A stretch of DNA of 64,000 nt from Flectonema sp. DT1601 (Eukaryota). Location of the stretch: positions 868,001 through 932,000 of the forward strand of contig OZ025782.1 in the NCBI GenBank assembly GCA_964019425.1. The letters run 5' to 3'. A program made the position numbers and the translations under genes. The notes beneath the pieces are model-generated. The model saw only the letters and a program-made list of their open reading frames with translations, did not search any database and was not told the origin of the DNA. Position 1 is the first letter of the stretch; each line of letters opens with the position of its first letter. Below, one piece after another: positions 3,001 to 62,300 of this stretch.

Positions 3001-4132
3001 ATTGCTGGCGTTGAGCCCAACTGGTGACAGTGACTCTGCCAGCCACAATGCTGAGATCTTAGCTCTCTTCGCAAACACACTTCATTATCAATTAGCTCCA
3101 ACCAGACTTCCTGGATTTGCTTTTGCTTGGTTAGAACTTGTGTCTCACAGAATCTTTATGCCAAAACTCCTTTGCACTAAGAACCACGAAGGATGGCCGT
3201 ACTTCCAAAAGCTGTTGGTTGACTGTTTGAAATTCCTCGAGCCATGGTTACGCACAGGTAAACTCACTGAGTCAATCAGACTTCTCTACAAAGGAACTCT
3301 TAAGGTGTTACTCGTTTTGCTTCATGACTTCCCTGAGTTCCTTTGTAATTATCACTTCTCATTCTGTGATGTCATTCCAAAAACTTGCATTCAAATGAGG
3401 AACGTCATATTGTCATCATTCCCTCGCCACATGAAGCTTCCAGATCCACTGACTCCACACCTAAAGGTTGACCGCCTACCTGAAATCTTACAGCCTCCAA
3501 CAATCCTTTCGAAGTACTGCGAGGCCTTGGAATCCATAAATTCTCCAATTCAAAAGGAAGAAGTCGACGCGTTTTTGAACGGAGAAGCTCAGCCAAGTCA
3601 GGAAGAGTGGTTGGGAACTTTAGTTGACAGAGTCAAAGTTAGAGATCCAACAAAGACAGGTTGTGGTTGGAACACTCAACTAATTCATTCACTTGTTCTG
3701 TACGTTGGGATTATTGGACTTGAGCGTAAAAACAACGATCCGAATATTCCTCCAAATGAAACTCATTCGATGGCTCTCTACAAAGAATTGGCTGAGAACC
3801 TCGACCCTGAAGGTCGTTACATCTTTATTGGAGCTCTGACTAACCAGTTGCGTTTCCCAAACAACCACACGTACTACTTCAGTACAATAATTCTTCAGTT
3901 ATTTGAAGACAATCCAGAACAGGAGGCTTTACAAGAACAGATTACTAGAGTCTTACTTGAGAGACTTGTCGTTAACAGACCTCACCCATGGGGACTACTA
4001 ATCACCTTCTTAGAACTCATGAAGAACACTCGGTACTCATTCTGGAGTAAGAAGTTTATTAACAAGTCTCCAGATGTTAAGAGACTCTTCGACTCCGTTG
4101 CTGTTCAATCCCACGTTGGTCTTAACAAGTAG
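1..4132 (+). CDS. CNOT1: CCR4-NOT scaffold subunit NOT1, 5'-partial, 3 cis-introns (2199-2284, 2461-2578, 2676-2761)
   Basis: NOT1 motifs FKPPNPWLMGIL, LKFEVEVLCK, PGFAFAWLELVSHR, LLHDFPEFLC, NQLRFPNNHT, RPHPWGLLITF. The three GT-AG introns join the ORFs 36-2222, 2219-2479, exon 2579-2675 and 2762-4132 in frame. Confidence 0.96.
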
Positions 4133-4195
4133 TTCAATTCTACGAAGGCTGAGTCACGACAAAAAAATATTAAAAAGCAACAAAAAAAAAAAAAA

Positions 4196-4226
<31 letters not shown>

Positions 4227-5128
4227 AGGGTCTTCTCTTTGGGGTAATAGTTTTAACAAGACGGAACTGAAATATATAAAATCAAGAAAAAAATGTCGAA
4301 GAAAAAAAGACAATCTTATTTACTTTCTTATTCTCCCTTTTCCTTTTTCGAACTCTAAATATTCGGGTGTGAAGCATCCAACGAACAAAGTAAATAATGA
4401 CAACAGTGTTTAGTATGAAAGAGAAACGATCAAAATGCTAATAGAGAGTGTTGCAGTGAATTAAATAAATGAAATCATCAATAAAAATAGTAACGCATCC
4501 AACATAGGCACATCCTGACGAGGAAAGTTGCTCGGTTTGTTTTTTCTTTAATGCGCTCTTAGCTAAGTTTACGTGTTCTGTTTCTAGCTGGTTTTCAAAC
4601 ACTCCCTCCCGCCTCCTAAGTGTGATTCCGATCTTTGCCCTCTGCGTCCCTCTCCCAATACATTTGAAACAGAACTAGTCGTCTTATGACATCTTTTCTT
4701 TTTTATTTGACGCCTCTTAACTAATCTTTATTAGTGTTTAAAGTAAGCCATGTTTGTGTAGCTGGTCCTTCAATAGCTTATCATGGTGGAATGCTACAGA
4801 CAAGTTAGCTATTTTGCTTCTCATTGCGAATGCTTGCCTCGTCACAGACTCAAAAAAAAAAAGAAAGACCTCCCCCGCATTAAAAAAAAGAGAAAAAGGA
4901 TTTCCCCTCGTTCGCGCAGTTTCTTCGTTTCTTCATTTTTTTATTTTTTGCCTTTCGACTTATTAGGAAATTCGTTTTTTGTTTGTATTATTATTTCTAT
5001 TGTAGGTTTCATATCAGTAATATGTGTCGTGGTATGAACTAACCGACTCCTTTAACAATCTCCTGTTGTACAAAACAATCAGTTTTCCGCCACGTTATTT
5101 GAATTTAAACAGAAAGAACAAAAGGAAC

Positions 5129-26329: not shown

Positions 26330-27660
26330 AGCACCAAATACTTGATAAGATGAATATAATTATCAATGCTTTACAAAAACGCTTGTCATGTCTCACTGAA
26401 GAATCAGAAAAAGGACAGGGCAAACAAAAAGCAGCCTGGTTAAAAGTCAAATTTGTGCCCTGCCATGGGGAATATTCCTTTCAATGGAATATTTAATTGC
26501 AAAGAAGCTTTAGAACTAGCAGCAGGAAGCACAGAACCTCTAACCAGAATGAAAGTCTCTCGTAGACTCAATACAACTCTCAGGGACATCCTTTGTGATC
26601 ATGATACGGAGAGTAGGTTTCTTCCAAAAACAGATTTTGAAATCGGCTAAAGAGCCCTCGCCAAAACTTTGTTGACAAGAATAAACGAACAGACTCTCAC
26701 GTACTAATTCACGCTTCAAAGCTGCTGACAACAAAGAGATTCAAAAACCTACTTCTCCAAAGGTGGCCGTTATCGCCTACATGATAACAGCGATGAGATC
26801 CTCAAAGAAGTAGAATCAGCAGTTGATGATTTCATCTCATTGCATTATGATCACAGCAAGTTTACTAATCTTGCGATGTTTCTAAAAACTACCCTGAGAG
26901 GTTACATCAGTAATATGCCACCATTACAAAACAATAATGAACTACAAACGGTACAAAAAGAGATTACTAAAATCAAAGAACACATGGGTTTTCTCCAGAT
27001 TGACAAGACAACACACGACCTAGCTCTGTGTTGTAGACATTTGTACCAACAAACCCTCAACAACCAAATCAACGGTTGTAATGTCTACAAAGAATACAAC
27101 ATTGAAGAGACCAAAGAGGAAATGATTAGGTTAGAAAAACTTAACAAAAAACACGGCTTCAGGCACACAAACAACTTACCATATCTTTATGGTAGTCCGA
27201 AGTTTCACAAGAAACCGATGAAGTTTCGTTTCATAGCTGGTTCTTCCTCAAAAACAAACTTCGATATTCAAAAGGAAGGTGACAACTGTTTGTTTAGAGG
27301 CAAACCTCTCACTACAACCACCAAGATGTCAAAAGAACTGTCAGGCATCTTAAAAAAAAACGCGTTCGTTTAGAATTAAAACGATAGAAAAAGAAGAAGA
27401 AAGGAAAACCGGAATACAGAAATATTTCATAGTTGACAATGTTGATGAGGTAGCGAAGTATATTAAAGCTAACTACACTTGTCTCAGCTATAGAAATGTT
27501 AAGTCCTTTGACTTTAGTGACATGTACACTAATTTACCGCACAAGGAAATACTTGAGGAAATTAGTACTATCCTGAATCAGTACATGTCCAATGATGAGA
27601 CCCTAACCAGAAACGAACTCAACACTCTAGGGAATGGTTTCGCATTTTCAAATAATGAAG
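26330..27660 (+). mobile_element. Decayed Penelope-like element (PLE) reverse transcriptase remnant
   Basis: Frame-broken peptides DKTTHDLALCCRHLY, LPYLYGSPKFHKKPMKFRFIAGSS and VKSFDFSDMYTNLPH match the PLE RT N-terminal motifs (PK.HK...R.I and FD...LYTNIP). It is truncated before the DD catalytic motif. Confidence 0.75.
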
Positions 27661-28130
27661 ATGCAAAAGACAGATGAACCGCAACCCATGGAGTCACCGA
27701 GGATCAAACACCTAACGCCCCGTACACCAGAAAAATAGGTGACGAAAACATTTGAAAATCCGAAGAGTATTCTTAAAACTCAAGGTGCACCCTCCAGAGC
27801 CAAGTCAGTTGCCATCAACACCATGAATACAGATTACAGGATTCCGACTCCTACTCCGAACCTGTACTGCCACCACCAACTGCAATCAAAGGTTGGAATA
27901 TACGACAAACTGATGAGATTATGAAATCACTCAGAGATAGTCAGAGTCCAACTAGAGGCAATTCAACTACACTTCCACCACCAAAACTCCATAAGCCTAA
28001 ACAACGAAGACTAAGGAGAACTATTCCGAAGGTGGATGAAAATGAAGCAACATCAGATGTGGTATGCCAAGGCCCAGCTCCAGCTTCAACAAGAAGTGAA
28101 TCGAAACGTCTACGGACTACAGGGCATAGG

Positions 28131-28151
28131 AGGGTTTGCGGGTTTGCGGGT
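28131..28151. repeat. (GCGGGTTT)n junction motif; other copies at 30235, 32254, 32639, 32957 (reverse), 45993 (forward) and 51010/51035 (both)
   Basis: Short arrays (mostly 2-3 units) of the 8-mer at eight positions between 28 and 51 kb. Confidence 0.85.
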
Positions 28152-28335
28152 CAATTTGACTTGACAGCATTTCTTTCTCTGGTAGTTTATTTAAAGCATG
28201 CGATTTTGTGTACAGGATCCAGTTATAATGATTCATGTCTAATTTGTTTCGGGGGGTAAACCTGATCGGTCCGACCTTTTTTTGTATTGGTCACCGACAG
28301 CCCTTCGTTCAATAAAAAAACCAATCCACACACAG

Positions 28336-30225
28336 AAAAAACCCCGTGAAATCGTTGCGGATATTTTGAACAAAGTTAGTGAAGAAGACTTGCGGAAGAA
28401 ATTATCGAACCCTCATGTTCTTGTTTCTTCAACTGGATCGAAATGGGACTATCAAGAGAATGGGGGATTCAAAAAAGAGCTTTGTAAGACATTCGTTAAC
28501 AACCTAAATAAGTTTAACAGCAAGGAGAATTTAGATAAGAATAGCAGTCCTGTACCCCTTCTTGTTTGTGGCATTGGCGAGGGCAAGAGTCGGGCGCTTC
28601 AGGAAGCGCCGAAGATGCTGAAGAAACTGGCGGAAGATTCCAAGACATTCAGCCAAGTGTTGGTGTTCCAAGTAACCTTTGAGAATGGCACACCGGTGGA
28701 CAAGAAATTGAATACTCGTGAGCAAGTCCCACTGCGGATCCTTTACCACCTTTCTGATCAGACTATCAGTTATAGTCAATTCGAGATCGCTAATGGAAAT
28801 CAAGGGCTGACCCTTGGTGATGTACTGGATTACCTGGCAAAAGACAACGACAAGCCATCAGCTGTGTTACTGATGATTGATGGCGTGCATAACTTGGCTG
28901 GGAAACCCATGAAACTACCTGAAGACGACCCTCTCCGCATATTTCTTTGCAACGTTGTGAGCGGCGATTACATTTTGTGCCAACGTCGGAGGCATTTCAT
29001 CTTCCCGCTGTGTTCCTGCACTGCAAGTATTACGGCTATCGAAGCTCTAAAGCAATCCAGCACCGAGAAAGCATGGATTCCTCTGCCAAAGCTAATTACT
29101 GTCCCATTGGTAAACGGGAAACAAATCCGAATCACCCAGGAACAGCTCAGCGTCATGGGGGGACATGGCAGGGCCGTGGAGGTTTTGATGAATATCATTG
29201 CGAACAATACGGAGCAATCTATGACTGATATCCAACTCTACAGTGAAGTTGCTGAACAGCTGAGTTCGAATAAATCGGGATTCGGGGGATTCGAGTCTGA
29301 TCATGTGACCGCCTTATTAAAGGCCTGCTTCCTGAGAGATACGCTTATCCCAGGACGAGACGATGCTAACATTCCAGTTGGGGAGGACAAGCAGCTTCAT
29401 GTGAGTACCTTCACTCAGCATGGGCTTCTCAGAATTGAGAACCAGAAACTGATAATTGCACCGATCTGGTTACTCATGAATAAAAAGCAGAAAAACGGGC
29501 ACATTCTGCAAGGTTGGCAAGGGGCGACACCAGTTAGTGAAGTACAGTGGGAGCAGTTCGGGGCATGGTTCCGAATGTTTCTGTCGAGGGTACATAAGAA
29601 TGGTGGTGAGACTATGAGCCTCAAGGACTTCCACAAAGGGATGCTTTGGGCTGACGACTCCAACCCACCGACGTTCAATAATGTTCCAGTCACGCGTGTT
29701 CTACAAAGTAAATTCAAAATCTCAACGAAGAGCGAATCGAAGGCTGAGGAAATCAAAAAGGAGTCCCAGGCCGGTAGTTGGAATATCAAACTCGAGAGCA
29801 AGGAAGTTGACATCAAAGATGGAAAGTCCATTGTGATCAATGCAAAAGCTGCATCTGCAGGCGACAGCTTTATCCCTCTGACCAGCTCGCAGGGTGAAAT
29901 CTTCACTGAAGTCTATCAGCAGAAGTTGTATTTGAAGACCGTTTTTCTTAAGTCGGACGAAAAATTTCTGGATTTTGCTAAGTCGGAGATACATAAAGCA
30001 GTGGGGGATAACGATGTTCTGATATTCTCCACCCAGGCTGAGTTTCCCAGTAGCTGGAAATCTTTATTAAAAGGGAAACTCGTTGGACTTGTGCATCGTT
30101 CGAATTTCAATGATTACTTCGGACCGTTCGCTGCTTTCTGGCCGAGGAGTGAACTGAAGCCGCCAGCTGCAATGAAGCGGAAAGCATCCCACGAAGAATC
30201 CCAGCTCATCAAGAGGCCGAAGTAG
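28336..30225 (+). CDS. Crinkler/RHS-type P-loop NTPase plus restriction-endonuclease-fold protein (main exon)
   Basis: Walker A GIGEGKS, Walker B LLMIDG, GGHGRAVE, WEQFGAWFR and a PD-(D/E)xK-like NAKAASAGDSF...EVYQQK. Phase-0 acceptor CACAG| at 28335. Confidence 0.8.
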   Translation, partial: KKPREIVADILNKVSEEDLRKKLSNPHVLVSSTGSKWDYQENGGFKKELCKTFVNNLNKFNSKENLDKNSSPVPLLVCGIGEGKSRALQEAPKMLKKLAEDSKTFSQVLVFQVTFENGTPVDKKLNTREQVPLRILYHLSDQTISYSQFEIANGNQGLTLGDVLDYLAKDNDKPSAVLLMIDGVHNLAGKPMKLPEDDPLRIFLCNVVSGDYILCQRRRHFIFPLCSCTASITAIEALKQSSTEKAWIPLPKLITVPLVNGKQIRITQEQLSVMGGHGRAVEVLMNIIANNTEQSMTDIQLYSEVAEQLSSNKSGFGGFESDHVTALLKACFLRDTLIPGRDDANIPVGEDKQLHVSTFTQHGLLRIENQKLIIAPIWLLMNKKQKNGHILQGWQGATPVSEVQWEQFGAWFRMFLSRVHKNGGETMSLKDFHKGMLWADDSNPPTFNNVPVTRVLQSKFKISTKSESKAEEIKKESQAGSWNIKLESKEVDIKDGKSIVINAKAASAGDSFIPLTSSQGEIFTEVYQQKLYLKTVFLKSDEKFLDFAKSEIHKAVGDNDVLIFSTQAEFPSSWKSLLKGKLVGLVHRSNFNDYFGPFAAFWPRSELKPPAAMKRKASHEESQLIKRPK

Positions 30226-33160: not shown

Positions 33161-33683
33161 GAGAGAGAGTTCAGCTTCCTCTGAGCCGCAATTCCACCAC
33201 GCAACTCATCCAGATTGGATTTAGAATCACTGAAGACTCTTGTGATTCCAGATCTGGGACCCAAGACAGAGGTTGCTTTTCCAAATTCACTTATTAACAG
33301 CTTCAGAGTTACCTGTTCAGCTTTATAACTACTTTCCGTTGCAACAAGTCTCGATGCCATGGTCCGTTCACACGGCGTGATCTGCACTGCCGCTGCGCCT
33401 GCCGTGTAGTTGACAGGGTCGTGGGATCCGTCAACAAAAATGGACGAGGTACATGGCCTAAGTTCGCTGCAGTACTCCTCGAACTTAGCCTTGTCCACTT
33501 CAGCAACACCGGTCTTCGAATGTCCATATCTGCAAGATATCTCCAGGTTTGGAACATCTATCCATGGCTCGATGCTGTCAGGCATGACAATCCCCTGGAT
33601 CTCCATATTACGGTCCTCGGCCGGTAAAGTTGAACCCCAAGTTCCACTAGCGATTCCCTTCGTAGAAGGAACCCAATCCAGTG
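33161..33683 (-). repeat. 523-bp inverted copy of an internal segment (35053-35575, RNase H region) of the adjacent LINE
   Basis: ORF 33103-33606(-) translates almost identically to part of ORF 33681-36200(+) (MEIQGIVMPDSIEPWIDVPNLEISC...). Confidence 0.95.
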
Positions 33684-36430
33684 GTATTCAACGACTCCTG
33701 GCTCTCAGCTAGAGTTCCGAAGGTCTGGAAAGAGGGTATGATTAGACCGGTATACAAACCGGGTAAACCCAAAGAAAAGCTATCCAGCTACAGGCCGATC
33801 ACGTTGACATCTGTAGTCGGCAAAATGCTTGAACGGATAATTTACGACAGGCTAATGTATTGGTTGACGTCAAATAATGCCTTGTCCTCCATTCAGGCAG
33901 GTTTCAGAAGGGGTAGGAATACGTGCGAGCAAATCTCACTGCTGGTCAATGCGCTTCATGGTGCGAGAAAAAGTGGTAAGAGTTCAATTCTACTCTCTTT
34001 CGACTTCACTGAGGCATTTGATAGGATAAATCATGTTAAACTGATTGCTAAAATGGTGACGATGGGGATTCCTTCACCATTCATCGGATGGGTTGCTGAC
34101 TTTCTGACGCGAAGGAAAGCAAAGGTTAGTGTCAATGGCAATCTGAGCGCATACAGAACTGTGACGAAAGGTGTTCCGCAAGGGTCGATTGTTGGACCTC
34201 CCCTTTATCTGATATATGTCGACGGCCTGGCTAAGAAACTTGAGAAGACTGGATGTGTTTCAGCACTCTACGCAGACGACACAGCTTGTGTGGTCTCGAA
34301 TAAGGATTTTAAAGTAACTTACCGGATGGCGCAATTGGCCCTTGGGTTAGTAGATCGTTGGTGCAAAGATAATGACATGGCACTGTCGGTTTCGAAGACC
34401 TGCGGGATGCCGGTGGATTGTCCTAGGAATATGTATTGGAGACTGGGATTCCCCAGAACGTCAGGAGAGAACCTCTTTCGGATCAGTAGGGAGGAACTGG
34501 CTGGGATGATTCGGTCAAATGAAGAAGGTAGGCCATTACTTGGAAATGGGGCGATGATCCTCAAGCTGGGTGACACGGAGGTTACGAAGGCAAGTGAACC
34601 TCTTGAACTGATGCCAGTGGGACCGGATCCGACCTGGGTGAAGTTGCTGACTGCCGTACTCATGCCGACGGTGGATAGTGTAAAGTACTTGGGTGTCCAT
34701 ATTGACGATGACCTTACATATGGCACACAAGTGGATAAACCACTGGATGAGACGAGGAAGGGACTTGTACTGCTTCGAAAGTTGGAGCAATTCAACTTTG
34801 ATTTCAAAACGCTGAACATGATCAAGAACTTATACATCCTCTCAAGGATTCTGTATGGGCTTGAGAGCTATGGACCTTTCTTGACAGATGAACAGCTAAA
34901 ACCTATTGACCTGAATCTGAGGAAGATAGCTAGAAAGATCACCGGCTGCGGCTTCAACACAAGGTCCCTTCCGTTACTGTGGGAGGCGAACATACTCCCG
35001 ATGAGACTGCAGATTGAGAAGCAAGCCAGGATTGCTTTATTTAGGTATCGGTCACTGGATTGGGTTCCTTCTACGAAGGGAATCGCTAGTGGAACTTGGA
35101 GTTCAACTTTACCGGCCGAGGACCGAAATATGGAGATCCAGGGGATTGTCATGCCTGACAGCATCGAGCCATGGATAGATGTTCCAAACCTGGAGATATC
35201 TTGCGGATATGGACATTCGAAGACCGGTGTTGCTGAAGTGGACAAGGCTAAGTTCGAGGAGTACTGCAGCGAACTTAGGCCATGTACCTCGTCCATTTTT
35301 GTTGACGGATCCCACGACCCTGTCAACTACACGGCAGGCGCAGCGGCAGTGCAGATCACGCCGTGTGAACGGACCATGGCATCGAGACTAGTTGCAACGG
35401 AAAGTAGTTATAAAGCTGAACAGGTAACCCTGAATCTGTTAATAAGTGAATTTGGAAAAGCAACCTCTGTCTTGGGTCCCAGATCTGGAATCACGAGAGT
35501 CTTCAGTGATTCTAAATCCAATCTGGATGAGCTGCGTGGTGGAATTGCGGCTCAGAGGAAGCTGAACTCTCTCTCGATACTAGAAGGGATAAGAAAATTA
35601 GACTCATTCGTTCACCTTCAATTCATCCCAGCTCACGTGGGAATTGAACCGCATGACAAGGCAGATGAACTGGCGAAAAAGATTTCAAAAGATGTTAAGA
35701 GCAAGCCGGTGTCAACGACTATGGACTTCTTCGCACATAAGTCAAGGATAGTGAGGGAAGCTAACAGAAAGCTGTTTGGTAAGATTATGGAGGGTTCAGC
35801 AAGGGCGAAACCACCGATCAAACGGGTGATGCTTAGGCAGTATCTTGATGCTACCGGAGGCCTGAGAGCGGCTCGATACCCCAAGGACATGCTGAGAGAA
35901 TCAGAGATAAGGATAGCCAGGTTCAGAACGGGCTCTCACCCCCTGCTCAGGGTAAATGAACTACCGATAAAGTGCCCCTTCTGCAAAAGAACAGACTCTT
36001 CTGCCAGACATCTAATATTTGATTGCGAGGATGGTGACGTGGTCCGCATTAGAGAAGGAACAATAAGATCAAACATTCAGGAAGCGAGAATCTCCGAGAC
36101 CAAACTAAATCTTTCAATAATGTTTGCGACGAGAAATCTTCACGCCCTAGCCGGCTACTTATGGCATTTGGGGCAACGAACAGGCTTATCAAACTGTTAA
36201 CTGATTGGTAGTTGCTAATTCATTAGTATCATTCTCCCTTATCACACTCCTTAATCATCTCCTAATTTCTCTGAGGACATCCGCAGAGCTTCATGGCTCG
36301 TAGGTAACCCAGTGGTCTTTGGCCACCGTCCCTGTACTGATCCTTCGCTTTATATTAACTGTGTCTTGAGATTCCTATCCGGGGAAGTCCTCCAACGGAC
36401 TCAGGTCAGTTGCGCTTGTTTTTACTTATA
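33681..36430 (+). mobile_element. Non-LTR retrotransposon A (ingi/I-group-like; RT-RNase H-CCHC), 5'-truncated; ORF 33681-36200
   Basis: RT motifs YRPITLTS, QAGFRRGR, DFTEAFDRI, GVPQGS, YADD, KYLG; RNase H FVDGS, FSDSKS, FIPAHVGIEPHDKADELAK; C-terminal CPFC...HLIFDC. Confidence 0.95.
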
Positions 36431-36536
36431 TACTTTATCAAAAAATAAGAAGGGCAAGAATGCTCAGAATGAAGAAAAATAAAGTGGAAAGACAGGGGGG
36501 ATGTGGAAAAAAAAATAATCCTGCCGTCCGCGATTT

Positions 36537-36760
36537 TCATCTCCTGGTTGGGTAACTACACATCACCTTCGGTGTTGTCGCAGTGTCTCTTCCAACACTC
36601 CTGTCTCCTTTTTCTCCTATTCTCCTTTTAAATTTCTCTTGAGGGCAGGCCTTCGGGCTGTTCAAGTGGTCTTTGACCACCGCTCTAGTTATATGCTCGA
36701 TTCTTTGTTTTTCCTTATCGATGGTAGGAATGGTAACCGAATTAGCTTCATGTGTCCAAT
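36537..36760 (+). repeat. 5' copy of the terminal direct repeat of element B
   Basis: Near-identical to 42354-42576 (tcatctcctggttgggtaact...gcttcatgtgtccaat). Confidence 0.95.
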
Positions 36761-38381
36761 AAACCTCCTGAAGATAGTGGGAGAAGACGGGATCCCGGAG
36801 CAAGAGAAGGAAAGAAGGGTGGCAAATCTCCTAATGGAGATCGTTCAATTCGTAGCTGGGTCAGAAGGTGGGAACCCGGAGATGAAGAGGAGGACACCGG
36901 ACACACTCGATGGGAGTGGTGGGACGGAAGCGACCGCGACGACGGCAGCAGAAGCGACGACACCCTCAACTACAGGTGTCAACCAACCAACTACAGGAGC
37001 ATCTACAGCTTCTAATCAACAAACGAGTACGAAGCCGTTCTCATTGCCGATACCGACAGCAATGAAGGACAATCAAACCACGAAGGGAAAGGCAAAAGCA
37101 AGCTACCCGGAGTGGCACATTCACGGTGCGTGGGCAGGCGCTGTGGCCACCATCAGTTACGACGTAGCAGCTAATGCTACAAACAACCTTACCTCTGGTC
37201 TTGTTTTAGTTCGTTCGAAGCTAGACTTAGAAGCACCCCGCCAAACAAAGAAGAGCGGCCGTTGGGCTGCTATCAGCAAAATCCCGCTCACAAAGAGCAC
37301 CGTTCCAGTAGCATTACCGGTGATAAAAAAGGGTGGCGTCTGCGAGATCAGGCGCGTATTTTACACGCATGTATTTGGTGACGACTTTTCTAAAGCAGCA
37401 ACTAGCCACCAGATTCCAACTCCCAACCCAGTTCTATTCATCCAAGACTGGGGAAAATCAGCTGAGAAAGAATTGACCGTCAAAACGACCGATATTCTAA
37501 AGAAATTGAAGATAAAGGCGGACCCCTTTAGCTACAGAAAGAACGAGTCCCACACCTCGATGGCTTTCAGAGTCCCCAGAAACCAAGTACACGAGGTTCT
37601 GGAATACAACAACAGCGAACCCGAAACTGACAAACCCAAGAATGTCTCTTTCAGAAACCCGAGTTGGTCGAACGGAAGTGACGTTTGGCCAACGTTGCAA
37701 TTCAAAAACGACCTTGGCTTCCTGGCAGCGAAGTCCAAGACTTCTGCACTTGATGAATTCAAAGGAAAATTCTACATGTGCAGGTTTAAAAGCTGTTTTG
37801 GACTCCGAGTCCACCCTGACTGTAATATCAGGGTCAGCATTAAGCTCAACGCGGCAATCAAGCCTGCACTGCCCTCGGGCGACAGGTTTGTTATAAATTC
37901 GATGGCGATTCGTAAGTACTCGACAGCGCAGATCAGCGACTTCTTGAAGTCCCCACACAACTGGGAACACACAGTTGTTGCTTCTTTCCATAAAGGAGGG
38001 AGTACTACAATTGTTGCAATTGCGAAATCTCAACCGCCCAACTTCGTAAGCATAGGTACTAATGAATACCTTGTGATAAACAAAGAAGTTAAACGAACTG
38101 ACAGAAAACCGCTAGGCCCAACCTACAACCCAGGCGACGCGGCTCAAAAACTAACGGGAACCCTGAAGAGACAAAAAACAACTCCTCAACCACAACAGCC
38201 AACTCAGCAGCCGACATCAGCACCAACACCAGCGCCAGCACCATCAGCACCAACACCAACGCCAGCACCAGCAACAGCACAAACAACAACACCGCCCACC
38301 GAATCTGCTGCTAAGCAGGATAGTGATAAAAACCGTGACGTAGAAATGGAAAGTAACGATTCGGACTTTGATCTCAACTGA
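36750..38381 (+). CDS. ORF1 of retrotransposon B (start codon uncertain)
   Basis: Long open frame upstream of the APE with T/P/A-rich termini. It ends at TGA in the same frame as ORF2. Confidence 0.75.
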   Translation: MCPINLLKIVGEDGIPEQEKERRVANLLMEIVQFVAGSEGGNPEMKRRTPDTLDGSGGTEATATTAAEATTPSTTGVNQPTTGASTASNQQTSTKPFSLPIPTAMKDNQTTKGKAKASYPEWHIHGAWAGAVATISYDVAANATNNLTSGLVLVRSKLDLEAPRQTKKSGRWAAISKIPLTKSTVPVALPVIKKGGVCEIRRVFYTHVFGDDFSKAATSHQIPTPNPVLFIQDWGKSAEKELTVKTTDILKKLKIKADPFSYRKNESHTSMAFRVPRNQVHEVLEYNNSEPETDKPKNVSFRNPSWSNGSDVWPTLQFKNDLGFLAAKSKTSALDEFKGKFYMCRFKSCFGLRVHPDCNIRVSIKLNAAIKPALPSGDRFVINSMAIRKYSTAQISDFLKSPHNWEHTVVASFHKGGSTTIVAIAKSQPPNFVSIGTNEYLVINKEVKRTDRKPLGPTYNPGDAAQKLTGTLKRQKTTPQPQQPTQQPTSAPTPAPAPSAPTPTPAPATAQTTTPPTESAAKQDSDKNRDVEMESNDSDFDLN

Positions 38382-41300
38382 CTAGATGACGATGAGGATG
38401 AACTCAGTCCGACCAACTCACTTGTGGAAAAGGATACGGCTCGTGAACTGCTGCTAAAGGCAGGCGACGTCGAACGCAACCCTGGCCCTGACAACTCTCT
38501 CATATCTCTACTGAGCTGGAACTGTCGATCGATGGGGAACAAAGGCGCTTATATTCACAAGCTGCTTAATGCCTATGCGCCTGACGTACTGTGCCTACAG
38601 GAGACTTGGACGAATGATGTAATTTCGCACACGGACTATTTCACCTATCGGAATGATAGGGCAACACGAGGTGGAGGGGTTATTTCTATGGTGAAAAAAT
38701 GCCACACTCAGCAGCGTTTGAACATGGAGCTTCCGCCACACTTAAATGATGTCGAGGTCGTGAAGGTCAACATAGGTGGAAAGATTGACATCATCAATGT
38801 TTATGCTCCCCCGGGATGCATGATCAGAGAGTCAGATCTTCCAGTCTCAACGAAAGCAATCGTCGCGGGTGACTTTAATGCCCATCATCCGGTGTGGTCA
38901 CTTAAATCGACGAGAGCAGGTTCAACTCTACATGCATGGGCAGCTCAAAATGATCTACTGGTTGCTAACAAGATGGGGTCAATCACAAGGCCTTTTCCTG
39001 ACGTCCCGGGGGGTGGTACCTCGCCAGATGTAGTATTCTTTTCAAACTCGATGGTTCTTGAAGAATTTAGTGCAATTGAAGAAGATAATAAACATGGGTC
39101 AGATCATCGACCTCTCTACACCGTACTGGATCCCATGTGCCAACTTGCACGGGCCACGATAGGTTCGAAGAAACGCGTTGTATGGGACTTCAAGTCTACG
39201 GACTGGAACTGCTTTGGGACCATGCTCGAAAAGAGAATTAGAAAATCAAGACTCTCCGATGATGCAACTGCGAATGCCAAGCTCTTTAACAACATACTGC
39301 ATGAAGTGGCGGCTAAATTCATTCGTCGACGTCTCCTTTTCAAAGGGAAACGGAGACGAAAGTGGAAGACGTCAACCCCTGATTCTACCAAATCGAAGGG
39401 TGCCCACCTACGTGATCAACTTGACAAGGGTAACAACTTTGCCTTTGCGTTTAAGAAGATCAAAGAACTGCAGCAAGATGCTGGTAAAGATATCAGTGTC
39501 AACAACATCTCTGACTGCGATCTACCATCAGCATTCTTGGACCTGTTTGTCTCGAAATCGGAAATATTATCGCTAGAGGCCCCCGCACTCTCAGAAGGTG
39601 ATAATGAAATAGATATTTGCTGTGATTTCACAATGGCTGAAATTAAAGCTGCGATTAAGAACCTGAAGACCCGCAAGGCTGCAGGACCTGATGGAGTTCA
39701 CAATGAGATGATCAAAAACTTCACTCCGGCAACAGTGGAATACCTCTTGAGAATTATTAACACTTCCTGGAAGACTTCAAAAGTACCGTACCAATGGAAA
39801 CAGGGACTAATCAAGCCCATGTTCAAGGCAGGGAAACCTCGTAATGAACTAAAGAGTTTCAGACCAATAACACTCACCTCGGTTGTTGGGAAACTTGCGG
39901 AGAGGCTCGTGTATGACCGACTCATGCACTGGCTCACAAAACATTCGTCGCTCAGCCCACTACAGGCTGGATTCAGAAAGGGGAGAAATACCTGCGAGCA
40001 GATCACCGTTCTAGTAGATGCTATCGTAAGGAGCCACATGGAAGAAAAGAGATCAGTGTTCTTGTCATTCGACTTTACTGCTGCGTTTGACAGGATCAAC
40101 CATAAGATACTTTTATTAAAATTAGTAAAGATGGGTGTTCCGAATGTTATTATCAGATGGATCACAGACTTTCTTACAAACAGGAAGGTTAGAGTTGAAG
40201 CGAATGGGTATTTTAGCGAATTCCGTACTCTGGCTAAGGGTTTCCCAGGGATCGATCCTGGGTCCTCTTCTCTATCTTATCTACGTTGATGACCTCTGCA
40301 AGATTTTGGAACTAGAGAAGGAAACAACGACGTCTGCTCTGTATGCGGATGACACAGCATGTGTGGTGTCAGGATCAAACATGGAAGAAGCTCTTTCGAA
40401 TGCTCAGTTAGTACTCGACAAAGTGGATCAATGGTGTTTTGAAAACGACATGGCCTTATCAGTCTCCAAAACCTGTGCGCTTAAGATGAATGTTCGCTCG
40501 AAGGGCATAGTACTAAACGATACGTGTAATCGCGAACTGCTTTTCTCTAGATCTGTTGAGGAACGCATGCTTAAACTTGACTATGGTGACATCGAGAAGC
40601 ATATCAATCTCAAATCACCCAGACCCATGCTTCAAAGTGGCGAAACTATTCTTGAAATTGGAGGAATCCCAATCAAGACACAAGAAGAACTCGACAACTT
40701 GATGCTGCAATACGTCGTTCGTGAGGACAGCATTATGGCTGTGAGAACAATATTCAAAACTGCCTTTCTGTTACCGATAGTCGACTCAGTAAAATACCTC
40801 GGGGTTCACATCGACGACAGGCTCACCTTCCACAAACAAGTAGGCAAGATTCACGAAGAATTAAAGAGGGGGATATCACTTCTGCAGTGCCTCCAGCCGT
40901 ACGAACTGGACTACAAGACTCTTAACATGGTTAAGAACCTTTATGTAACCGCGAGAATCTCGTATGCGCTTGACAGTTTTGGTTGGCTGATAAGCAGCAG
41001 CGTTGACAGCATCGACTTCGAACTGAGGAAGGTCGCCAGACTGGTTACTGGATGCAGCAAGTGTACGCCAAGAGAGTTACTGTTGTGGGAGTCTGACATG
41101 TATCCTTTTAAACGTCAGATTGAAAAGCAGACAAAAATTGCGTACTACCGGTATAAAGCCATGACTTGGATACCTAATACAAACAGACTCGCCTCAACAC
41201 AAAGCTACTGGGCTGGCCTAATCCCTGGCACTGATAGTCAGCGTGAAAGCCAGTGCCTTGTGCAGCCTGACTCGATGGAACCCTGGGTATCTCCGACGAA

Positions 41301-42243
41301 CCTTAGGATTAGCAACAGCTGCGGATTTCCGAAGTCCGCGAACCCTGCGGTGGACAAAGAAAAGTTCATGTCGTACATTGGAACGTTGCCTCCTGTCGAC
41401 ATGGTAATCAACTGCGATGGCTCCTACTCTGCTTCCGGCGCGGCCGGTGCGGCTCATATTGCCAAGTCACGTAGCGGCCTTCGATCTGCTTACGCGTCTA
41501 GGCTTTATCAAGCTGACTGCAGCTACAGGGCTGAACAACATGCTCTGAAGAACGCGGCTAGACATCTGAGAACAGTGTTTAGCAAAGATCGTTCAATGAA
41601 ATCTGTGAGGATATTCACGGACTCAAAATCCCTTCTGGATGAACTGCTGGGTGGAAGGTGCAGACAGAGGAATACCGAGTCCCTCAAGATACTGGAATAC
41701 CTGCGCATGTGTGAGATGAAAGTGCATTTGCAATTCATCCCCTCGCACATTGGAATCGAGTTTCACGATGAAGTTGACGCGCTTGCAAAGGAAGCAGCGC
41801 ACAACAAGAACATCCGACCTGTGCTAGTCAAAGGCACGTACTTCTCGCGATCATCACATGTGAAGCGCTGCATCAAAAAGGATCTGCTTAACGTGAGTGG
41901 TTACACCTGCTACAAACACCTCATCAGAGGCCGTTCCGTTAAATACCCTCCTGGGATGGAAAGAGCCGACGAGATACGGATAGCGAACTTCCGGACAGGA
42001 TGTCACCCGCTAATTCAGAACTGGCGCAAGACGATCGACTGCCCATTTTGTGGCGAACCGTCCTCACAGGTTCACCTGCTGCAGGGATGTCAATCTCCCA
42101 AACTCGACTCTGCCAGGTTCAAAATCCTGGGCTTCTCAACACTGACCGGCAAGGGGATCGCGATCGAGAACTTATTATTGCCAACGAAATTCCTAACCTT
42201 GAAGCTCTCTTCACTTTGGCATGGTTTCCATCACTCGCGTTGA
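38382..42243 (+). pseudogene. ORF2 of retrotransposon B (2A-APE-RT-RNH) with one frameshift near 40240
   Basis: LLLKAGDVERNPGP precedes the APE. The KGVPQGSILGP motif is split between ORFs 38424-40289 and 40135-42243. Confidence 0.9.
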
Positions 42244-42353
42244 TCATAAGGTGGATGGAACAAACATCTAACCTTAGACTTTGGAAGTAAAGTAGGTGAC
42301 ATGTAGTCGCCAATATCAATTTGTTATTATTTTAGTATTTTCATCATTATCAA

Positions 42354-42576
42354 TCATCTCCTGGTTGGGTAACTGCACATCACCTTCGGTGTTGTCGCAG
42401 TGTCTCATCCAACACTCCTGTCTCCTTCTTCTCCTATTCTCCTTATAAATTTCTCTTGAGGGCAGGCCTTCAGGCTGTTCAAGTGGTCTTTGACCTCCGC
42501 TCTAGTTATATGCTCGATTCTTTGTTTTCCTTATCGATGGTAGGAATGGTAACCGAATTAGCTTCATGTGTCCAAT
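42354..42576 (+). repeat. 3' copy of the terminal direct repeat of element B (3' UTR)
   Basis: Near-identical to 36537-36760. Confidence 0.95.
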
Positions 42577-42666
42577 TTCAAGGACGCGTGACCATTTATT
42601 TTTTTCCGTTGCCGCTCTTCTTACGTCCTCAGGCGGAGCCTACCTATGTTTCCCGTGTTTTCCAAT

Positions 42667-42823: not shown

Positions 42824-42862
42824 AACCAACGATTCTAAAGCTACAGTTTCTGTACTTTATTG
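42824..42862 (+). other. Complete 39-nt spliced-leader exon fused to a protein-coding sequence (retroposed mRNA 5' end)
   Basis: AACCAACGATTCTAAAGCTACAGTTTCTGTACTTTATTG; the 3' part CAGTTTCTGTACTTTATTG is the conserved kinetoplastid/diplonemid SL end. It is not followed by the SL intron or preceded by the SL-gene upstream sequence. Confidence 0.95.
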
Positions 42863-42874
42863 GGACCACACAAA

Positions 42875-44505
42875 ATGACTCCACGCGGCGGTCTCGGACG
42901 GCTGCGGCCGACAAAAAATTGTAGGGATGAAGCAAGAGGACGACCAGCTAACCGGACGCTCTCTAGCAAACAAAGGAACAAGCTTGCTCACACGATCAAC
43001 GGAAATGGGCCTAAGATAGAAGAAAGGGAAAGGCTGGACCGAGACAACACCCGGGTAGACCGGGGAGAAACAAGGAAGAAACCGGCGGAGAGGAGACTCA
43101 AGAAGCAGCAAGAGGACCAGGAGGAAGAGAGGAAGGAGCTGCTCAGCAAACATGAGCTCCTTGAAGCACAACAAAAGAAGCTGGACGAGCAGCACAGGCA
43201 GCAACAATTAGATCTCTTTCAGGAAAAGCTCCAACTGGAACAAGACTTGGAGGATCACAAGAATCAGCAAGTGGAGAAACAACAACTACTGGAACAACAA
43301 CACCAGCAGCAGCAGCTTGAGCTTCACCAAACGAAGCATCAGATGCAACAGGAACTGGAGAACCAACAACAACAACAGCATGAAAAGCAACAACAGCAGC
43401 AACAGCAACTTGACCATCAAGCCCAACAGCAGCAGGAAATTCAACAGCAGCAGCAACAGCAACTTGATCATCAAGTCCAACAACAGCATCTAAACCATCA
43501 ACAGAGCCAAGAAACTATTTAACCAACAACAGCAAGAATTGCTTAAGTTCAAGGCAGACCTCCAACAAAAACAGGAGATAATCCTGAACCAACAGCAGCA
43601 ACTCGAACAGCAGCACAGCAAGGAGAAGGATATCGAGAGAGAGTCTCTCCGCAGGAGAAGATGTCAACTCGAGGAAGACCACCGTCAACAGCAACTTGAA
43701 CAGTCCAGGATTCAACAGGAACTGCAACTGCAACAGACAAGCCTGGAGGAAAAACAGCATCTGCTACAACAGCAATTTAATGTGGAATTGGAAAAGGGTA
43801 AACTGGAGTTACTGGACTTACAGCAACAACTGGAGAAGAAAAACCAGGAAGGTTTGAAGGAGCAGGAGGTGGCTCTACAGCTTAAACAACGGCTGCTTAT
43901 CGAACAGCACAACAAGGAGAAGGATGACGGGAAGCAGGAGTTATTGGTCCTGCAACAGCAACTAAGCGAGCAACGTCTGCATGATCAGCAGCAACAGCAA
44001 CAGAGAAGCGAGGAGTTAAAGAAGCAAGAAGAAGACCTCGAACTTCAACGACTCCAACTGCAACGCCAGCAGGAGGATGAAATGGAGAAGGGCAGATATG
44101 AGCTCCAGAGTCTCAGGGACATGCTGGGTATGGAGTTTGAGGAACAGAAGACGTCACTAAAAATCCAAGGGGATAATCTTCGCCATCAGCAACAACAGCT
44201 CCAGCAACAACAGCAAATCTTCCAAGAAAAAGAAGAACGATTGGATCAGCACTACGTACACCAGCCTTATGCCACCGACACCAACCCCCACTACCAACTT
44301 CCTCAAGACCCCCGGTTTGATGAACTTCAGAGGGAGCTACGTCAGGAACGGGCCGAGAAAGGAGAACTTAGGGAGCTGCTGAGATCTCTTCAACACCAAC
44401 TGAAGGAAATGACGCAAGAACTTAACTTGCAGAGAATGGAAGCTCAGGAGCAGAGGGAGGCTGCCAAGAAAGAGTCACTGGGAATGCAAGCCCGCTACCT
44501 GCAGG
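42875..44505 (+). pseudogene. SL-capped processed copy of a Gln/Glu-rich coiled-coil gene, frameshift near 43515
   Basis: ATG at 42875, 12 nt after the SL. The Q/E-rich ORFs 42860-43522 and 43539-44519 are joined by a 1-nt insertion (gaaacta versus gaacta in the inverted copy). Confidence 0.85.
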
Positions 44506-45404
44506 AATTGCTGTTGTAGCAGATGCTGTTTTTCCTCCAGGCTTGCCTGTTGCAGTTGCAGTTCCTGTTGAATCCTGGACTGTTCAAGTTGCTGTTGACG
44601 GTGGTCTTCCTCGAGTTGACATCTTCTCCTGCGGAGAGACTCTCTCGATATCCTTCTCCTTGCTGTGCTGCTCGAGTTGCTGCTGTTGGTTCAGGATTAT
44701 CTCCTGTTTTTGTTGGAGGTCTGCCTTGAACTTAAGCAATTCTTGCTGTTGTTGGTTAAATAGTTCTTAGCTCTGTTGATGGTTTAGAAGCTGTTGTTGG
44801 ACTTGATGATCAAGTTGCTGTTGCTGCTGCTGTTGAATTTCCTGCTGCTATTGGGCTTGATGATCAAGTAGCTGTTGCTGCTGTTGTTGCTTTTCATGCT
44901 GTTGTTGTTGTTGGTTCTCCAGTTCCTGTTCCATCTGATGCTTCGTTTGGTGAAGCTCAAGCTGCTGCTGCTGGTGTTGTTGTTCCAGTAGTTGTTGTTT
45001 CTCCACTTGTTGATTCTTGTGATCCTCCAAGTCTTGTTCCAGTTGGAGCTTTTCCTGAAAGAGATCTAATTGTTGCTGCCTGTGCTGCTCGTCCTTCTTT
45101 TGTTGTGCTTCAAGGAGCTCATGTTTGCTGAGCAGCTCCTTCCTCTCTTCCTCCTGGTCCTCTTGCTGCTTCTTGAGTCTCCTCTCCGCCGGTTTCTTCC
45201 TCGTTTCTCCCCGGTCTACCCGGGTGTTGTCTCGGTCCAGCCTTTCCCTTTCTTCTATCTTAGGCATTTCCGTTGATCGTGTGAGCAAGCTTGTTCCTTT
45301 AGAGAGCGTCCGGTTAGCTGGTCGTCCTCTTACTTCATCCCTACAATTTTTTGTCGGCCGCAGCCGTCCGAGACCGCCGCGTGGAGGCATTTTGTGTGGT
45401 AACC
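44506..45404 (-). pseudogene. Inverted, unspliced copy of the same Q-rich gene (5' ~900 bp), with a trans-splice acceptor AG at 45406-45405
   Basis: The reverse complement matches 42863-43777 with small indels and stops. Upstream on the - strand is ttttatttattttAG|GGTTACCACACAAAATG. Confidence 0.85.
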
Positions 45405-46142: not shown

Positions 46143-46168
46143 AAACTGTAGCTTTAGAATCGTTGGTT
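46143..46168 (-). pseudogene. Truncated SL RNA gene (first 26 nt of the exon, with conserved upstream flank)
   Basis: AACCAACGATTCTAAAGCTACAGTTT, preceded by the same ctaattacctggggtaact.ctttttaaggtt flank as the gene at 47265. Confidence 0.9.
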
Positions 46169-47152: not shown

Positions 47153-47265
47153 CCCCAAAGGAAGAAAATTCTTCCTAAGAGGTTAGCTAAATATTCCAAG
47201 CAAGCTCGGATGTTGAGACTGTACCAATAAAGTACAGAAACTACGTAGCTTTAGAATCGTTGGTT
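47153..47265 (-). ncRNA. Spliced-leader RNA gene (exon with a 2-nt insertion, GT donor, ~72-nt intron, T7 tract)
   Basis: SL exon ...TTTATTG|GTACAG, then hairpin tccgag-cttg-cttgga, a U-rich single strand (candidate Sm site), hairpin aggaagaa-tt-ttcttcct and TTTTTTT. Confidence 0.9.
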
Positions 47266-48424
47266 AACCTTAAAAAGAAGTTACCCCAGGTAATTAGAAC
47301 AACACATTCATAAAAAGTACTGCCCTGCATCAACTCACAGACAGCAGGATCCACAATCTTGTGACTGCGTTGAAGAAAGGTTCTTTGATTGCGATGATCC
47401 TGCCTTTGTGAAAAACACTTGATGCGTTGTATACTTCGCCAAAGGTGGTCATTGAAAAGGTATGCATGATAAACCTGTTGTGAATAATATAAGTAAAAGG
47501 TAATTGAAAGTAACTTACTATACGGGTGTTGGTTTCTATCATTTTTTTTTTTTAATCTGTAAATTCTTTAGTAGAAAAATAACATAATTTTTTGGAAGCT
47601 GTGTAACGAAAAAGAGGAAAAAATGGAGAAGAAGAGTTCCTACTAATAACATAACAGAGGTTTATCACTCCGCGTCTGAAAAACTTCTTCTCCGACGGTA
47701 CAATAAATAAAAAAGAAACGTTCGTAAAGAACGTTCATAAGAGTAATGAGAATAATAAGCATAAGGCAGACGTACCAGAGGAAAGAACCGAAAAGAGAGA
47801 AAAAAAACGAAATCGGCACCTCACCAGTAATTTTTCAGACTTTGTTCACTTGGAACCGACAAGCGGAAAGTAAAAGTTTTAACGTTATGCTCCACCATTC
47901 GTAAAACATGTTTTGTTTTACGAGTAGAGATTTTTTCTTCGACATAACTGTTTCATGCGAAGGAAAAGAAAAGGGCTCTAAGTATTGAACATTACTTTGT
48001 GTGGTTTCACATATTTCGGATTATTTTCGGCCCACCGGGCACAAGTGGTGTACTTTCAACACACCCTTTTTTTTCCCCATTGCCATTTTTTCGGGCATTC
48101 CGAGTAGCCGAGACGTAAGCTGTTTCAGATTTGAGATTGGGACTTATTGACCAAGAGAATGATTAACTATCCAACGTTGTTGTATGGCATGAGGACTCAG
48201 GGTGACTTAATCCGTAGCAGTTTCCGAAGACTCAGTACGGATTTCCCAGTTCACCTTAACTGATGCCAAGTCTAAGCTCCTGAGAAGAGACAGATGGGGC
48301 TTTCTGTTGAGAACACTCATGTGTATGATCTGATTGCAAAAAAAGAAAAATGAAAATAGAGTGAGTTTTTTTTTTGATCTCTTTACAAAATCAAAAAAAA
48401 AAAAAAAAAAAAAAAGCGAGACTA

Positions 48425-59317: not shown

Positions 59318-62300
59318 TTAGTTAGTTAGTTAGTTAGTTATTTAATCCAACGTTACTGTATATTATGAGTGCTAGGTAACTCACAGTAACAGAGGACCCA
59401 ATCCTTAGCCATATCCGAAGATTTCGCATGGATTGTTGAAGTAGCATCGACTGAAAGATTAATAAATACCAATCTCCAGCTTTCCGCCTCGCCTAGCTTA
59501 TTAAACTATCGAACTAAAAAAAAAATAAAAAATAAAAAAAATATAAAATAAAATAAAATAAAATAAACAAAAAAAAAATTAATAATAAATAAATAAAAAT
59601 CATCAAAATTAAAACGGGATAGAACAATTACACTGATAATATACTAAAGCACTCGTAGAGCATTAACAATTAACGCTAGGTTGGCAGCAGCCATTTATTT
59701 GAATCGAACCACACTGGATCGATCCGAGTAAATTTAGAAGACCTTATCTTCTCCAGGAATGAGTTAAAATGTTGGTTTTTGTTTTTATCCGAATTCAAGA
59801 AACAGTATAACTCCAAGTCCCACAAATGGTCGTAGACTTTTTCGATTTCATTTGCGTTATAAACTTCTGAGATCAGTTTTCTGACTTCCTCCTTACACTT
59901 CGAATCAAGTGTGGTAACAGTGGAATGAACGGACAAATATTTGACAAGACGTTGTCGAGGGACCGCTCGACGTAACGGGAAGCTGTCGTGTAGGCTCCTG
60001 AGGTCATTCAAGAGCGATATGAGAGCCAATTGGTTTTCAGTAGCAAAAAACTTGTGTAGATGTTGACCCACATCCTCATCTTGATCATTAAATACCATCT
60101 GTGGGAAGTGAATTTGAACAAACATCTTAGTCTCCGGACATTTCGATAGTAAATGGTGAGTATCTGTATCTCTTTTATTACAGAAGAGACAGTTTGATAA
60201 TCCCTTTCTTGGTTGCTTCACAAGCGGATGGTGTCCAGTCCTGAGGCGGGCGATTTGCATTTCTCCCTCACGGTTAAGATCCGGGTGGAAGCGTTGAGCA
60301 CCTCTGCCCATTGTCGATAAAGAGTGCACATGTGATGTACTGCGCTGCTCGTACCAGTTTCTTCGGATTTTATTATTCACTGAACATTGGGTCATCCTGT
60401 AGTCAAACTTGACCACTGTTAAGGGAATAGCAGAAGCCGCTGCTTTGTTGGCGAGAGAATCGGCCATTTCATTTCCGATGATCCCACAGTGTGAGGGGAC
60501 AAATTGTAGGGTGATCGGACGCTGGAGCAGCGATATTCTCCTAAATAATTCGGCATTAGTCGCTGAATGTTGCTTCAGATGTCCACGCTCAAGACTTCGA
60601 AGTGCTGACTGACTATCCGTGATTATATTAATCCTCCCACTTGGCAGGCAAGACGAATACTTTTCAATCAAATTCACTGCTGATAACAGAGCCTGTTGCT
60701 CGGCATTATAAATCATCAGAGATGGGTCGTAACGATGTATTTCTTTGATGCATCTCTTTCCAAAGATTAAAACTGCTGCATTACCACAATGGTAGTTACT
60801 TTCTTTATCTTGGAAGTAGGATGCATCTGTATACAGCGAGGCCACTGACTTTGGGAGGGTCTTAATTTTTCCAAGTGCAGCTAACAAATTCTTGCATGGG
60901 TCCATGGACTTACGGAAATCTGCCCAGGAATTGATAATAACATCCGGGGGTGGTCCCCAAGGAGTCTGGTGATGCGGTAGGCAGAGCATTGATCTTTCAT
61001 TAGGGGTCACATAAGTCTTGGCATGGGGTTCTGCGTAGAGTTTCCACGAGCTAGACTTTTCAGGGTGAACCAACGACCGAGTCGGGCAATCGTCTGGGAG
61101 CCTCAGGAAACGTTCGTAGGATAAAGCCACGACTTTAGCCACGTGTAGTTTGAACGGGGGAATACTAGATTCTACCGATAATGCAGTTGAGGAGGTCGAT
61201 TTGGAGCATCCCGTCAGTCTTAGTTGAAGTGAACGAAGTGTATTCTCAATAAGTTTCAAAGAATTCTGCTTGATATAGGGTGCATAAGAAGCTAGTCCGT
61301 AATAGGCCCTAGAGAGGATCAGCCCATAGATTGTTTGTCGGAGAACTTCCGTTTTGATTTTAAAAGATGAAACTATCGAAATCAAGCCGATTCCCCGCTT
61401 TAGGGTATTTGATAGGTGAGCTAACTGCGATGTAAAAGATAAATCATCGTCGATAATTATGCCTAGATACCGCGACTGCGACACACGCCTTAGAGGGATT
61501 GCAGCCTTTAGAACGAAAGAACCCTTTGGCGTCCTTTGTGAAAGTTGAGAGCGGGTCTCAAGGTAGTTACCATTAATTGCAAGTGGGTATACCGGTCCTG
61601 TTTTGAAATTGAGCAGAGCTGCGGCACCATCATCCTGATGTATCCTGATGAAGTCGGCAGAGCCACGGGGAAGGTCGATATCGTCCACCGTAGAGGGAAA
61701 ATAAAGTCTTGGAAGTCTACAAATACTTCTGTCTGAGAAACGTCCTCCGAATGCCAAAAATTCAGTCTTGTTCAGAGAGAGGGACATTGCTGAATCAGCG
61801 AGCCAGTTCTCCACTTGTCCTATGGCATTGTTCGCCTTGGATTCCAAATCACTAACCGAAGAGCCACTAACAAACACTGTCAAGTCATCCGCGTATAACA
61901 GCTTTAAATCGGCTGTGATGGCATCCGGTAGGGAGTTCACGTACACACGGAATAAGAGCGGTCCTAGAATACTGCCTTGTGGGACCCCCTTTTTGCAAGA
62001 AATCGGGCCTGTACGGTTATGGCCGTGGAGAAGATGCGCTACTCGGTCCGAGAGGAAATTACCAATCCACCTTACATAAGGGACTGGGATGAGTGTTGTA
62101 AGCCTACTCATTAGAATATGGTGATCCACATTATCAAACGCACCCGAGATATCGAAGAAAATCATCGTTGCACATTTCTCATAATTGTTTTTAACTTCAG
62201 CTGCAGCTTCGATCATAACGGCTATATTTTCCTCCGCTGACCTACCAGGAACAAACCCAGATTGTTTAGGGTCTAGTTTAGAAATCAGCAGATGTTCTAA

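Follow-up and report, generated by a model that had tools for sequence, protein, structure and literature searches.

A candidate readthrough-then-StopGo junction between ORF1 and ORF2 of two euglenozoan LINEs

How is the second open reading frame (ORF2) of a long interspersed nuclear element (LINE) translated when no in-frame AUG stands before its endonuclease domain? The question is raised by LINE B, which lies in a 64,000-nucleotide stretch of the Flectonema sp. DT1601 assembly (contig OZ025782.1, positions 868,001 to 932,000; hereafter, the window). The preliminary description of this DNA had proposed that the stop codon of ORF1 is read through by a minority of ribosomes, and that a 2A StopGo peptide then releases the ORF2 protein (ORF2p). 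Comparison with another element and with related proteins supports this proposal, as the divergent LINE C has the same layout with another classic signal. Judged from sequence, ORF2 is probably made by readthrough of the ORF1 stop and then released by StopGo at a 2A-like NPG/P, the slash marking the skipped bond. Readthrough taken by itself, by any route, is likely.

LINE B ORF1 (36759–38381, + strand) ends in AAC-TGA-CTA-G (38376–38385, +), where an Asn codon precedes the TGA stop (38379–38381) and CTAG follows it. The frame is open for 620 codons, stop to stop, up to this TGA (36519–38381) and is open again, in the same frame, from 38382 to 40289. The in-frame, ATG-free spacer with its 2A-like peptide (38382–38489, +) aligns with the N-termini of the related ORF2 clusters P0002 and P0004. 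It comprises 35 codons without Met, ending in LLLKAGDVERNPG, after which come the Pro, eight residues and the SWNCRS of the apurinic/apyrimidinic endonuclease (APE) domain. The 2A core GDVERNPG/P occupies 38463–38489, with the skip predicted after 38486, and LLLKAG-DVERNPGP fits the StopGo core (D/G/C/N)(V/I)ExNPGP with a Leu-rich stretch upstream. The first in-frame ATG past the stop is found at 38532, within APE and beyond its SWN strand; those at 38386, 38392 and 38398, 5–17 nt past the stop, are all out of frame. A single 151-nt read contig of low depth, from four low-share sequencing runs, covers 38323–38462 without a gap and differs by 25 substitutions over the 140 nt, an observation counted in favour of the proposal. 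The junction as first described, from AAC-TGA-CTA-G through the 35 ATG-free codons to GDVERNPG/P and APE, was recovered in the sequence and in its six-frame translation.

Two classic readthrough contexts are defined in PMC13517186, type I (UAG-CAR-YYA) and type II (UGA-CUA); according to this source, type I works without a structure 3′ of the stop, and UGACUAG is active at a basal level. A 3′ stem-loop was treated as conditional for a UGACUA type II signal. UGA-CUA(G), which had been called an efficient readthrough context, is the type II motif of that source, and in LINE B it stands in frame with the downstream ORF.

LINE C, on the minus strand, was absent from the original finding and therefore serves as an out-of-sample test. 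A six-frame search of the window for NPGP gave only two sites, one in LINE B and one in LINE C. The LINE C junction is CAG-TAG-CAA-TCA (63795–63806, −; stop 63803–63801), and its TAG CAA TCA is an in-frame match to the type I nonanucleotide. From the stop, 31 ATG-free codons lead to GIHPNPG/P, the translation of spacer and 2A-like peptide spanning 63705–63800 (−), and APE follows. ORF2 (59676–63707, −, in frame with the spacer to 63800) is intact, with Pfam matches to APE, reverse transcriptase (RT) and RNase H (PF00075, E 1.1e-9), and is 100% identical to cluster P0049. The 3′ end of a presumed ORF1 (63804–63998, −) is open for 65 codons up to the window edge; this end, too short to assign, gave no significant match to the relatives of LINE B ORF1. 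Predicted structure past the LINE C stop is marginal (fold z −1.9 and −1.5). In both elements APE is followed by RT in ORF2 (Pfam PF03372/PF14529 and PF00078), as in APE-type retrotransposons without long terminal repeats (LTRs). LINE A (33666–36200) has lost its 5′ part and has no junction. A leaky-context stop in frame, an ATG-free spacer and NPG/P are thus found in two of the two LINEs of the window in which the junction is present.

Under the proposed mechanism, termination at the ORF1 stop with release of the ORF1 protein (ORF1p) would be the fate of most ribosomes, and a few percent would read through the leaky stop and translate the spacer in frame. The 2A-like NPG/P would then skip a peptide bond, giving a C-extended ORF1p ending in NPG and a free, Pro-initiated ORF2p. 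Both products would come from one mRNA, at a high ORF1p:ORF2p ratio and without reinitiation or a protease.

The background frequency of such signals was estimated from the 6122 stop triplets of the whole window in six frames. TGACTAG occurs at three of them and TAG-CAR-YYA at 10; TGACTA, TGACGG or TAG-CAR-YYA occur at 50 (0.8%), or at ~0.3% with the frame requirement. Control elements were taken from a metagenome scan for a 2A-plus-WN pattern, covering 120 of ~140 loci and 55/64 parts, with duplicates not merged. The 120 loci, mostly other 2A-LINEs, gave 45 APE-positive matches, 38 of which have an upstream in-frame stop within the available sequence. Of these 38, 32 have an in-frame ATG of their own; one has a leaky context, preceded by an ORF of 4 codons, and two, both from locus L077, have a long ORF upstream in the same frame. 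These counts indicate that the layout is not a general property of 2A-LINEs. L077 itself (22–4243, +) is a metagenome LINE with a 330-codon ORF, TGA-CAG and an in-frame 1076-codon ORF, carrying two 2A-like motifs and its own ATGs; it is possibly an unrelated case of readthrough. A scan of GTDB gave four distant loci with RT or APE, none of which has a 2A junction, and one of viral contigs gave no relative, its 30 pattern loci not being APE-positive.

Is the stop a stable feature of the family? Relatives were compared as proteins, by their ends, and not as DNA across the junction. The ORF1 search gave four matches, with the clusters P0045 (99%, 20 members) and P0046 (73%, 13 members) both ending in DFDLN; in EukProt P0047 and P0048 (~49% to LINE B ORF1) the terminal residue is again Asn. 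The family is conserved, at 450–550 aa. Terminal Asn is found in seven of eight ORF1 relatives, these seven being 38–99% identical, and the eighth ends in Gln; P0056, a fragment divergent beyond residue 59, is not counted. The tails are unalignable, with free variation at positions −2 to −8. Asn makes up 10 of 240 ORF1 tail residues, which gives a binomial p of ~1e-5 for the four of five outside the query clade, uncorrected for shared ancestry, and it is terminal in 1 of 49 other proteins fetched. The position of the ORF1 stop and the Asn before it are, as far as protein ends tell, conserved. The P-site codon's identity is a determinant of readthrough, and Asn is not among the codons examined in PMC9841425.

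A profile search with ORF1 over 1.84 billion representatives gave six matches of 93–505 aa. No ORF1–ORF2 fusion was seen among these six, or among the ORF2 matches of 479–2000 aa (44 for LINE B and 5 for LINE C). The preliminary description had pointed to sister copies with a sense codon as evidence that would tell against it; at the protein level they were not borne out, as both ORF1 clusters have their last residue at the same position and the matches include no fusion. A private nonsense mutation in a single ORF1-2A-ORF2 polyprotein, or a sense codon, is an extremely unlikely explanation of the TGA. The LINE B copy is decayed, and two ORF1-2A-ORF2 single proteins have been reported in a pseudoscorpion (PMC13405545), but the 33 members of the two ORF1 clusters share their last residue, and a private mutation was rejected on these conserved ends and on the absence of fusions among the matches. 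TGA as a sense codon was rejected on usage: four long ORFs hold 62 TGG and zero in-frame TGA, the ORFs of the window use all three stops, and the nuclear code looks standard.

The stop could also be removed from the ORF2 mRNA by splicing at the AG adjacent to it (CTAG in LINE B, TAG in LINE C), either by trans-splicing of a spliced leader or through a cis-intron. A euglenozoan spliced leader, which we take to be that of a diplonemid, is present in the host, both stops abut AG, and AACTGAC resembles a branch-point motif. In the window, a 39-nt stretch (42824–42862, +) matches a listed euglenozoan spliced leader at 37/39 bases (PMC3795323). Against splicing, the T content upstream of the spacer AGs is 0.10–0.33, compared with 0.33–0.60 at the best AG upstream of eight host ORFs, and trans-splicing at any spacer AG would expose only out-of-frame ATGs or the ATG within APE. 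Moreover, ORF1 (P0047) and ORF2 (P0005) bear the same Trinity gene name, which suggests that both are probably on one transcribed unit. With T-poor spacer AGs and no usable ATG downstream, trans-splicing between the ORFs, named at the outset as an observation that would overturn the proposal, is judged unlikely, and splicing of either kind is very unlikely to account for ORF2.

Several observations, on the stop itself, on ORF2 relatives and on 2A activity, weigh against readthrough followed by StopGo. No 3′ stimulatory stem-loop was found at the LINE B stop within 122–150 nt (fold z 0.32 and 0.08). The ORF2s of LINEs B and C are ~28% identical, and their clades are sisters in a quick tree made without named reference elements, so the layout may have been inherited rather than acquired independently, although the two signals differ. 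Among the relatives, the initial Met of P0002, P0004 and P0050 precedes the last Pro by 35, 32 and 31 residues, close to the position of the LINE B and LINE C stops, and Met is thus found at the spacer head in three of the six ORF2 lineages of the two clades. P0050 begins with Met-Met, of which at least the second must be ATG. The Met of P0002 could be a GTG or TTG start call of the kind made by prokaryotic gene callers.

These Met-headed proteins make reinitiation possible and fit stop-start coupling. Ribosomes would terminate and reinitiate just past the ORF1 stop, at an AUG in some families and at a near-cognate codon in LINEs B and C, and the 2A would trim the leader from ORF2p. Such coupling at SART1 and unconventional reinitiation in mammalian L1 have been described (PMC3708506, PMC5972666), and a spacer of 31–35 codons has the length that a reinitiated 2A would need, full 2A activity at times requiring more than 30 aa of native sequence (PMC12846837). 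Reinitiation leaves unexplained, however, that both elements have the ORFs in frame, that their leaky contexts are of two different classic types, and that the Asn is conserved, and the three out-of-frame AUGs just past the LINE B stop would capture ribosomes. It is regarded as unlikely, with an appreciable residual probability.

Where other ORF2 proteins are taken to begin bears both on readthrough and on gene annotation. In the closest clusters, P0001 (101 members) and P0049 (15 members), the called start is a Met within APE, past the SWN strand, which counts in favour of readthrough; in P0005 it is a Met immediately ahead of APE. In practice, gene callers start such ORF2s within the endonuclease domain. 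The first Met of P0005 aligns with the final Pro of LINE C NPG/P-LRVLSWN. An NPG/M variant of StopGo has been reported active (PMC12846837); the P0005 Met could be this variant, or equally a linker substitution or a true start.

Of the two proposed steps, skipping at the 2A is the less secure. In a human-cell screen of 20-mers, 14 of the 60 GDVERNPGP peptides listed (63 in all) were classed as skipping, as were 2 of 10 HPNPGP peptides, and the listed peptide nearest to that of LINE B, ending in LLIKAGDVERNPGP, was classed as non-skipping (PMC13405545). The LINE C motif differs from the consensus at two positions; GIHPNPGP joins G at p12 and H at p14, two variants reported as functional when each was tested singly (PMC12846837). 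Low skipping in the screen, together with a range of 2A activities that includes none (Odon 2013, PMC3708506), would be in line with a real readthrough followed by poor skipping, which would yield mostly an ORF1–ORF2 fusion as in Gag-Pol. Such an outcome is considered distinctly unlikely. The screen was limited to 20-mers in human cells, and NPGP is kept in both clades (LINE B, P0002 and P0004; LINE C and P0050) despite the divergence of the spacer.

Readthrough followed by StopGo, the explanation retained here, may extend beyond the two elements. In a broader proposal, to which we give even chances, a whole euglenozoan (probably diplonemid) LINE clade would use programmed readthrough and StopGo, the signal having switched between the alphavirus and the tobacco mosaic virus (TMV) type, with the Asn codon as an unrecognised 5′ determinant. 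It would constitute a third route to ORF2 expression; as a candidate intermediate, it would stand between LINEs with two ORFs and 2A elements with one, such as Ingi/L1Tc. Tandem recoding had been put forward as undescribed in LINEs, and no report of LINE ORF2 readthrough, or of readthrough then 2A, was found in openly licensed PMC papers and bioRxiv; the search extended neither to Repbase nor to subscription journals. The word "readthrough" is absent from the main text of Odon 2013 (PMC3708506) and from the PMC10161547 supplement. Each part has a precedent: a 2A ahead of APE is known from LINEs (PMC3708506), readthrough of TGA-CT between gag and pol from LTR elements (bioRxiv 10.1101/2022.12.06.519325), and StopGo followed by frameshifting from cardioviruses (PMC5009743).

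The LINE B copy is decayed. Its ORF1 is 5′-truncated, without the first 12 codons of its relatives (tblastn aligns it to P0045 residues 13–545 at 99%), the RT is frameshifted near 40240–40250, and a second frameshift probably lies near 42153, behind which the read contigs X1 and X2 have a T insertion relative to this copy. ORF2 (38487–42243, +), 90–94% identical to the intact P0001, comprises APE, RT, an RNase-H-like region and a C-terminal Cys/His motif. Pfam gives PF03372 from residue 44 (E 2.3e-13), PF14529, then RVT_1 (PF00078); no Pfam RNase H match was obtained for LINE B at E ≤ 0.1, and PF00075 is listed for P0004/P0005. ORF1 gave no Pfam match and no PDB sequence match, and its only Atlas matches at 0.9 or above are unnamed clusters. 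Its full-length structure model is poor (pLDDT 43). An AlphaFold model of the 260-aa core (pLDDT 80.5) consists of three tandem β-α-β-β-α-β units; Foldseek gave no match at E ≤ 0.001, and above this value only ferredoxin-like folds, such as ACT domains and the RNA recognition motifs (RRMs) of raver1. The modelled core fits an RRM-like RNA-binding function, as would be expected for a LINE ORF1. The tail is acidic and ends in Asn. Acidic tails are common to P0045–P0058, and in most of these a D(V)EM/DM motif precedes the Asn at the end.

LINE B is flanked by a 224-bp direct repeat with six mismatches and one gap. The copy at the 5′ junction (36537–36760, +) is 97% identical to 42354–42576 (+), a probable 3′ untranslated region (UTR) through and beyond which X1 and X2 extend. 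This segment resembles the 3′ flank of LINE A, and 42340–42610 folds better than shuffled sequences (z −2.67); the repeat is therefore probably the 3′ UTR of LINE B copied to the truncated 5′ junction. On this resemblance to the 3′ UTR of the element itself, a long target-site duplication was rejected as its origin. The LINE A region (33161–36200) has a 523-bp inverted RNase H copy at its 5′ end (33161–33683 versus 35053–35575). An Rfam search of the window gave no match. The 5′ end, which in the Ingi clade carries a 77-nt signature, is missing from LINE B and lies outside the window in LINE C.

Genomic copies of the spliced leader are found at 42824–42862 (+), ~47205–47266 (−) and 46148–46168 (−). 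The first heads a Gln-rich ORF region (42839–44519), of which there is also a long inverted duplicate (to ~45418), and this region is probably a retroposed mRNA. At 26729–28259 and 28243–30225 lie degenerate fragments that resemble RT and an ORF of 660 aa that has a P-loop-like motif and no Pfam family above cut-off; the features at 26729–30225 are possibly other mobile elements.

How does the junction compare with known systems? RNase H after RT is a feature of the Ingi clade; LINEs B and C were not filed as Ingi because ORF1 is present. They share with L1Tc/Ingi, and with other APE-type LINEs that have an N-terminal 2A, a 2A-like peptide directly before APE and an APE-RT(-RNase H) ORF2 (PMC3708506). 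Ingi is described without ORF1 in the same source, whereas LINE B has an in-frame ORF1 of ~550 aa behind a leaky stop, and a leader without AUG. The translation of LINE ORF2 from a bicistronic mRNA has been called unclear and the role of 2A in LINEs open (Odon 2013, PMC3708506). The layout would be one answer to both, the leaky stop setting the ratio and the 2A replacing a protease. SART1, with UAAUG coupling, and mammalian L1 likewise have a bicistronic LINE mRNA and scarce ORF2p, but they reinitiate, whereas in LINEs B and C no AUG precedes APE and ORF2 lies in the frame of the ORF upstream.

At the stop, LINE B matches the UGA CUA GA of O'nyong-nyong virus, and LINE C the Gln-UAG-CAR-YYA of TMV (PMC13517186). 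LINE B differs from alphavirus and mammalian type II signals in having no predicted extended 3′ stem-loop, and its activity is predicted from the motif. These matches point to classic readthrough signals working in euglenozoans, with the Asn codon as a new candidate 5′ context. The Gag-Pol junctions of Tj1, Tosmo1-3 and Tcry1 (GAA-TGA-CT), of Tca2 and of Moloney murine leukemia virus resemble these LINEs in that an in-frame stop, preceded by a conserved codon and followed by CT, separates the structural from the enzymatic ORF and sets a high structural:enzyme ratio (bioRxiv 10.1101/2022.12.06.519325). In the LTR systems the fusion is cut by a protease that is part of Pol; LINEs B and C are non-LTR elements with a 2A motif in its place, and would extend gag-pol-style readthrough to this class. 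Cardioviruses also use tandem recoding to separate products and lower enzyme output, with StopGo first and a −1 frameshift second (PMC5009743). In LINEs B and C the order is reversed, with readthrough as the predicted first event, and the junction would be a natural coupling of readthrough to StopGo.

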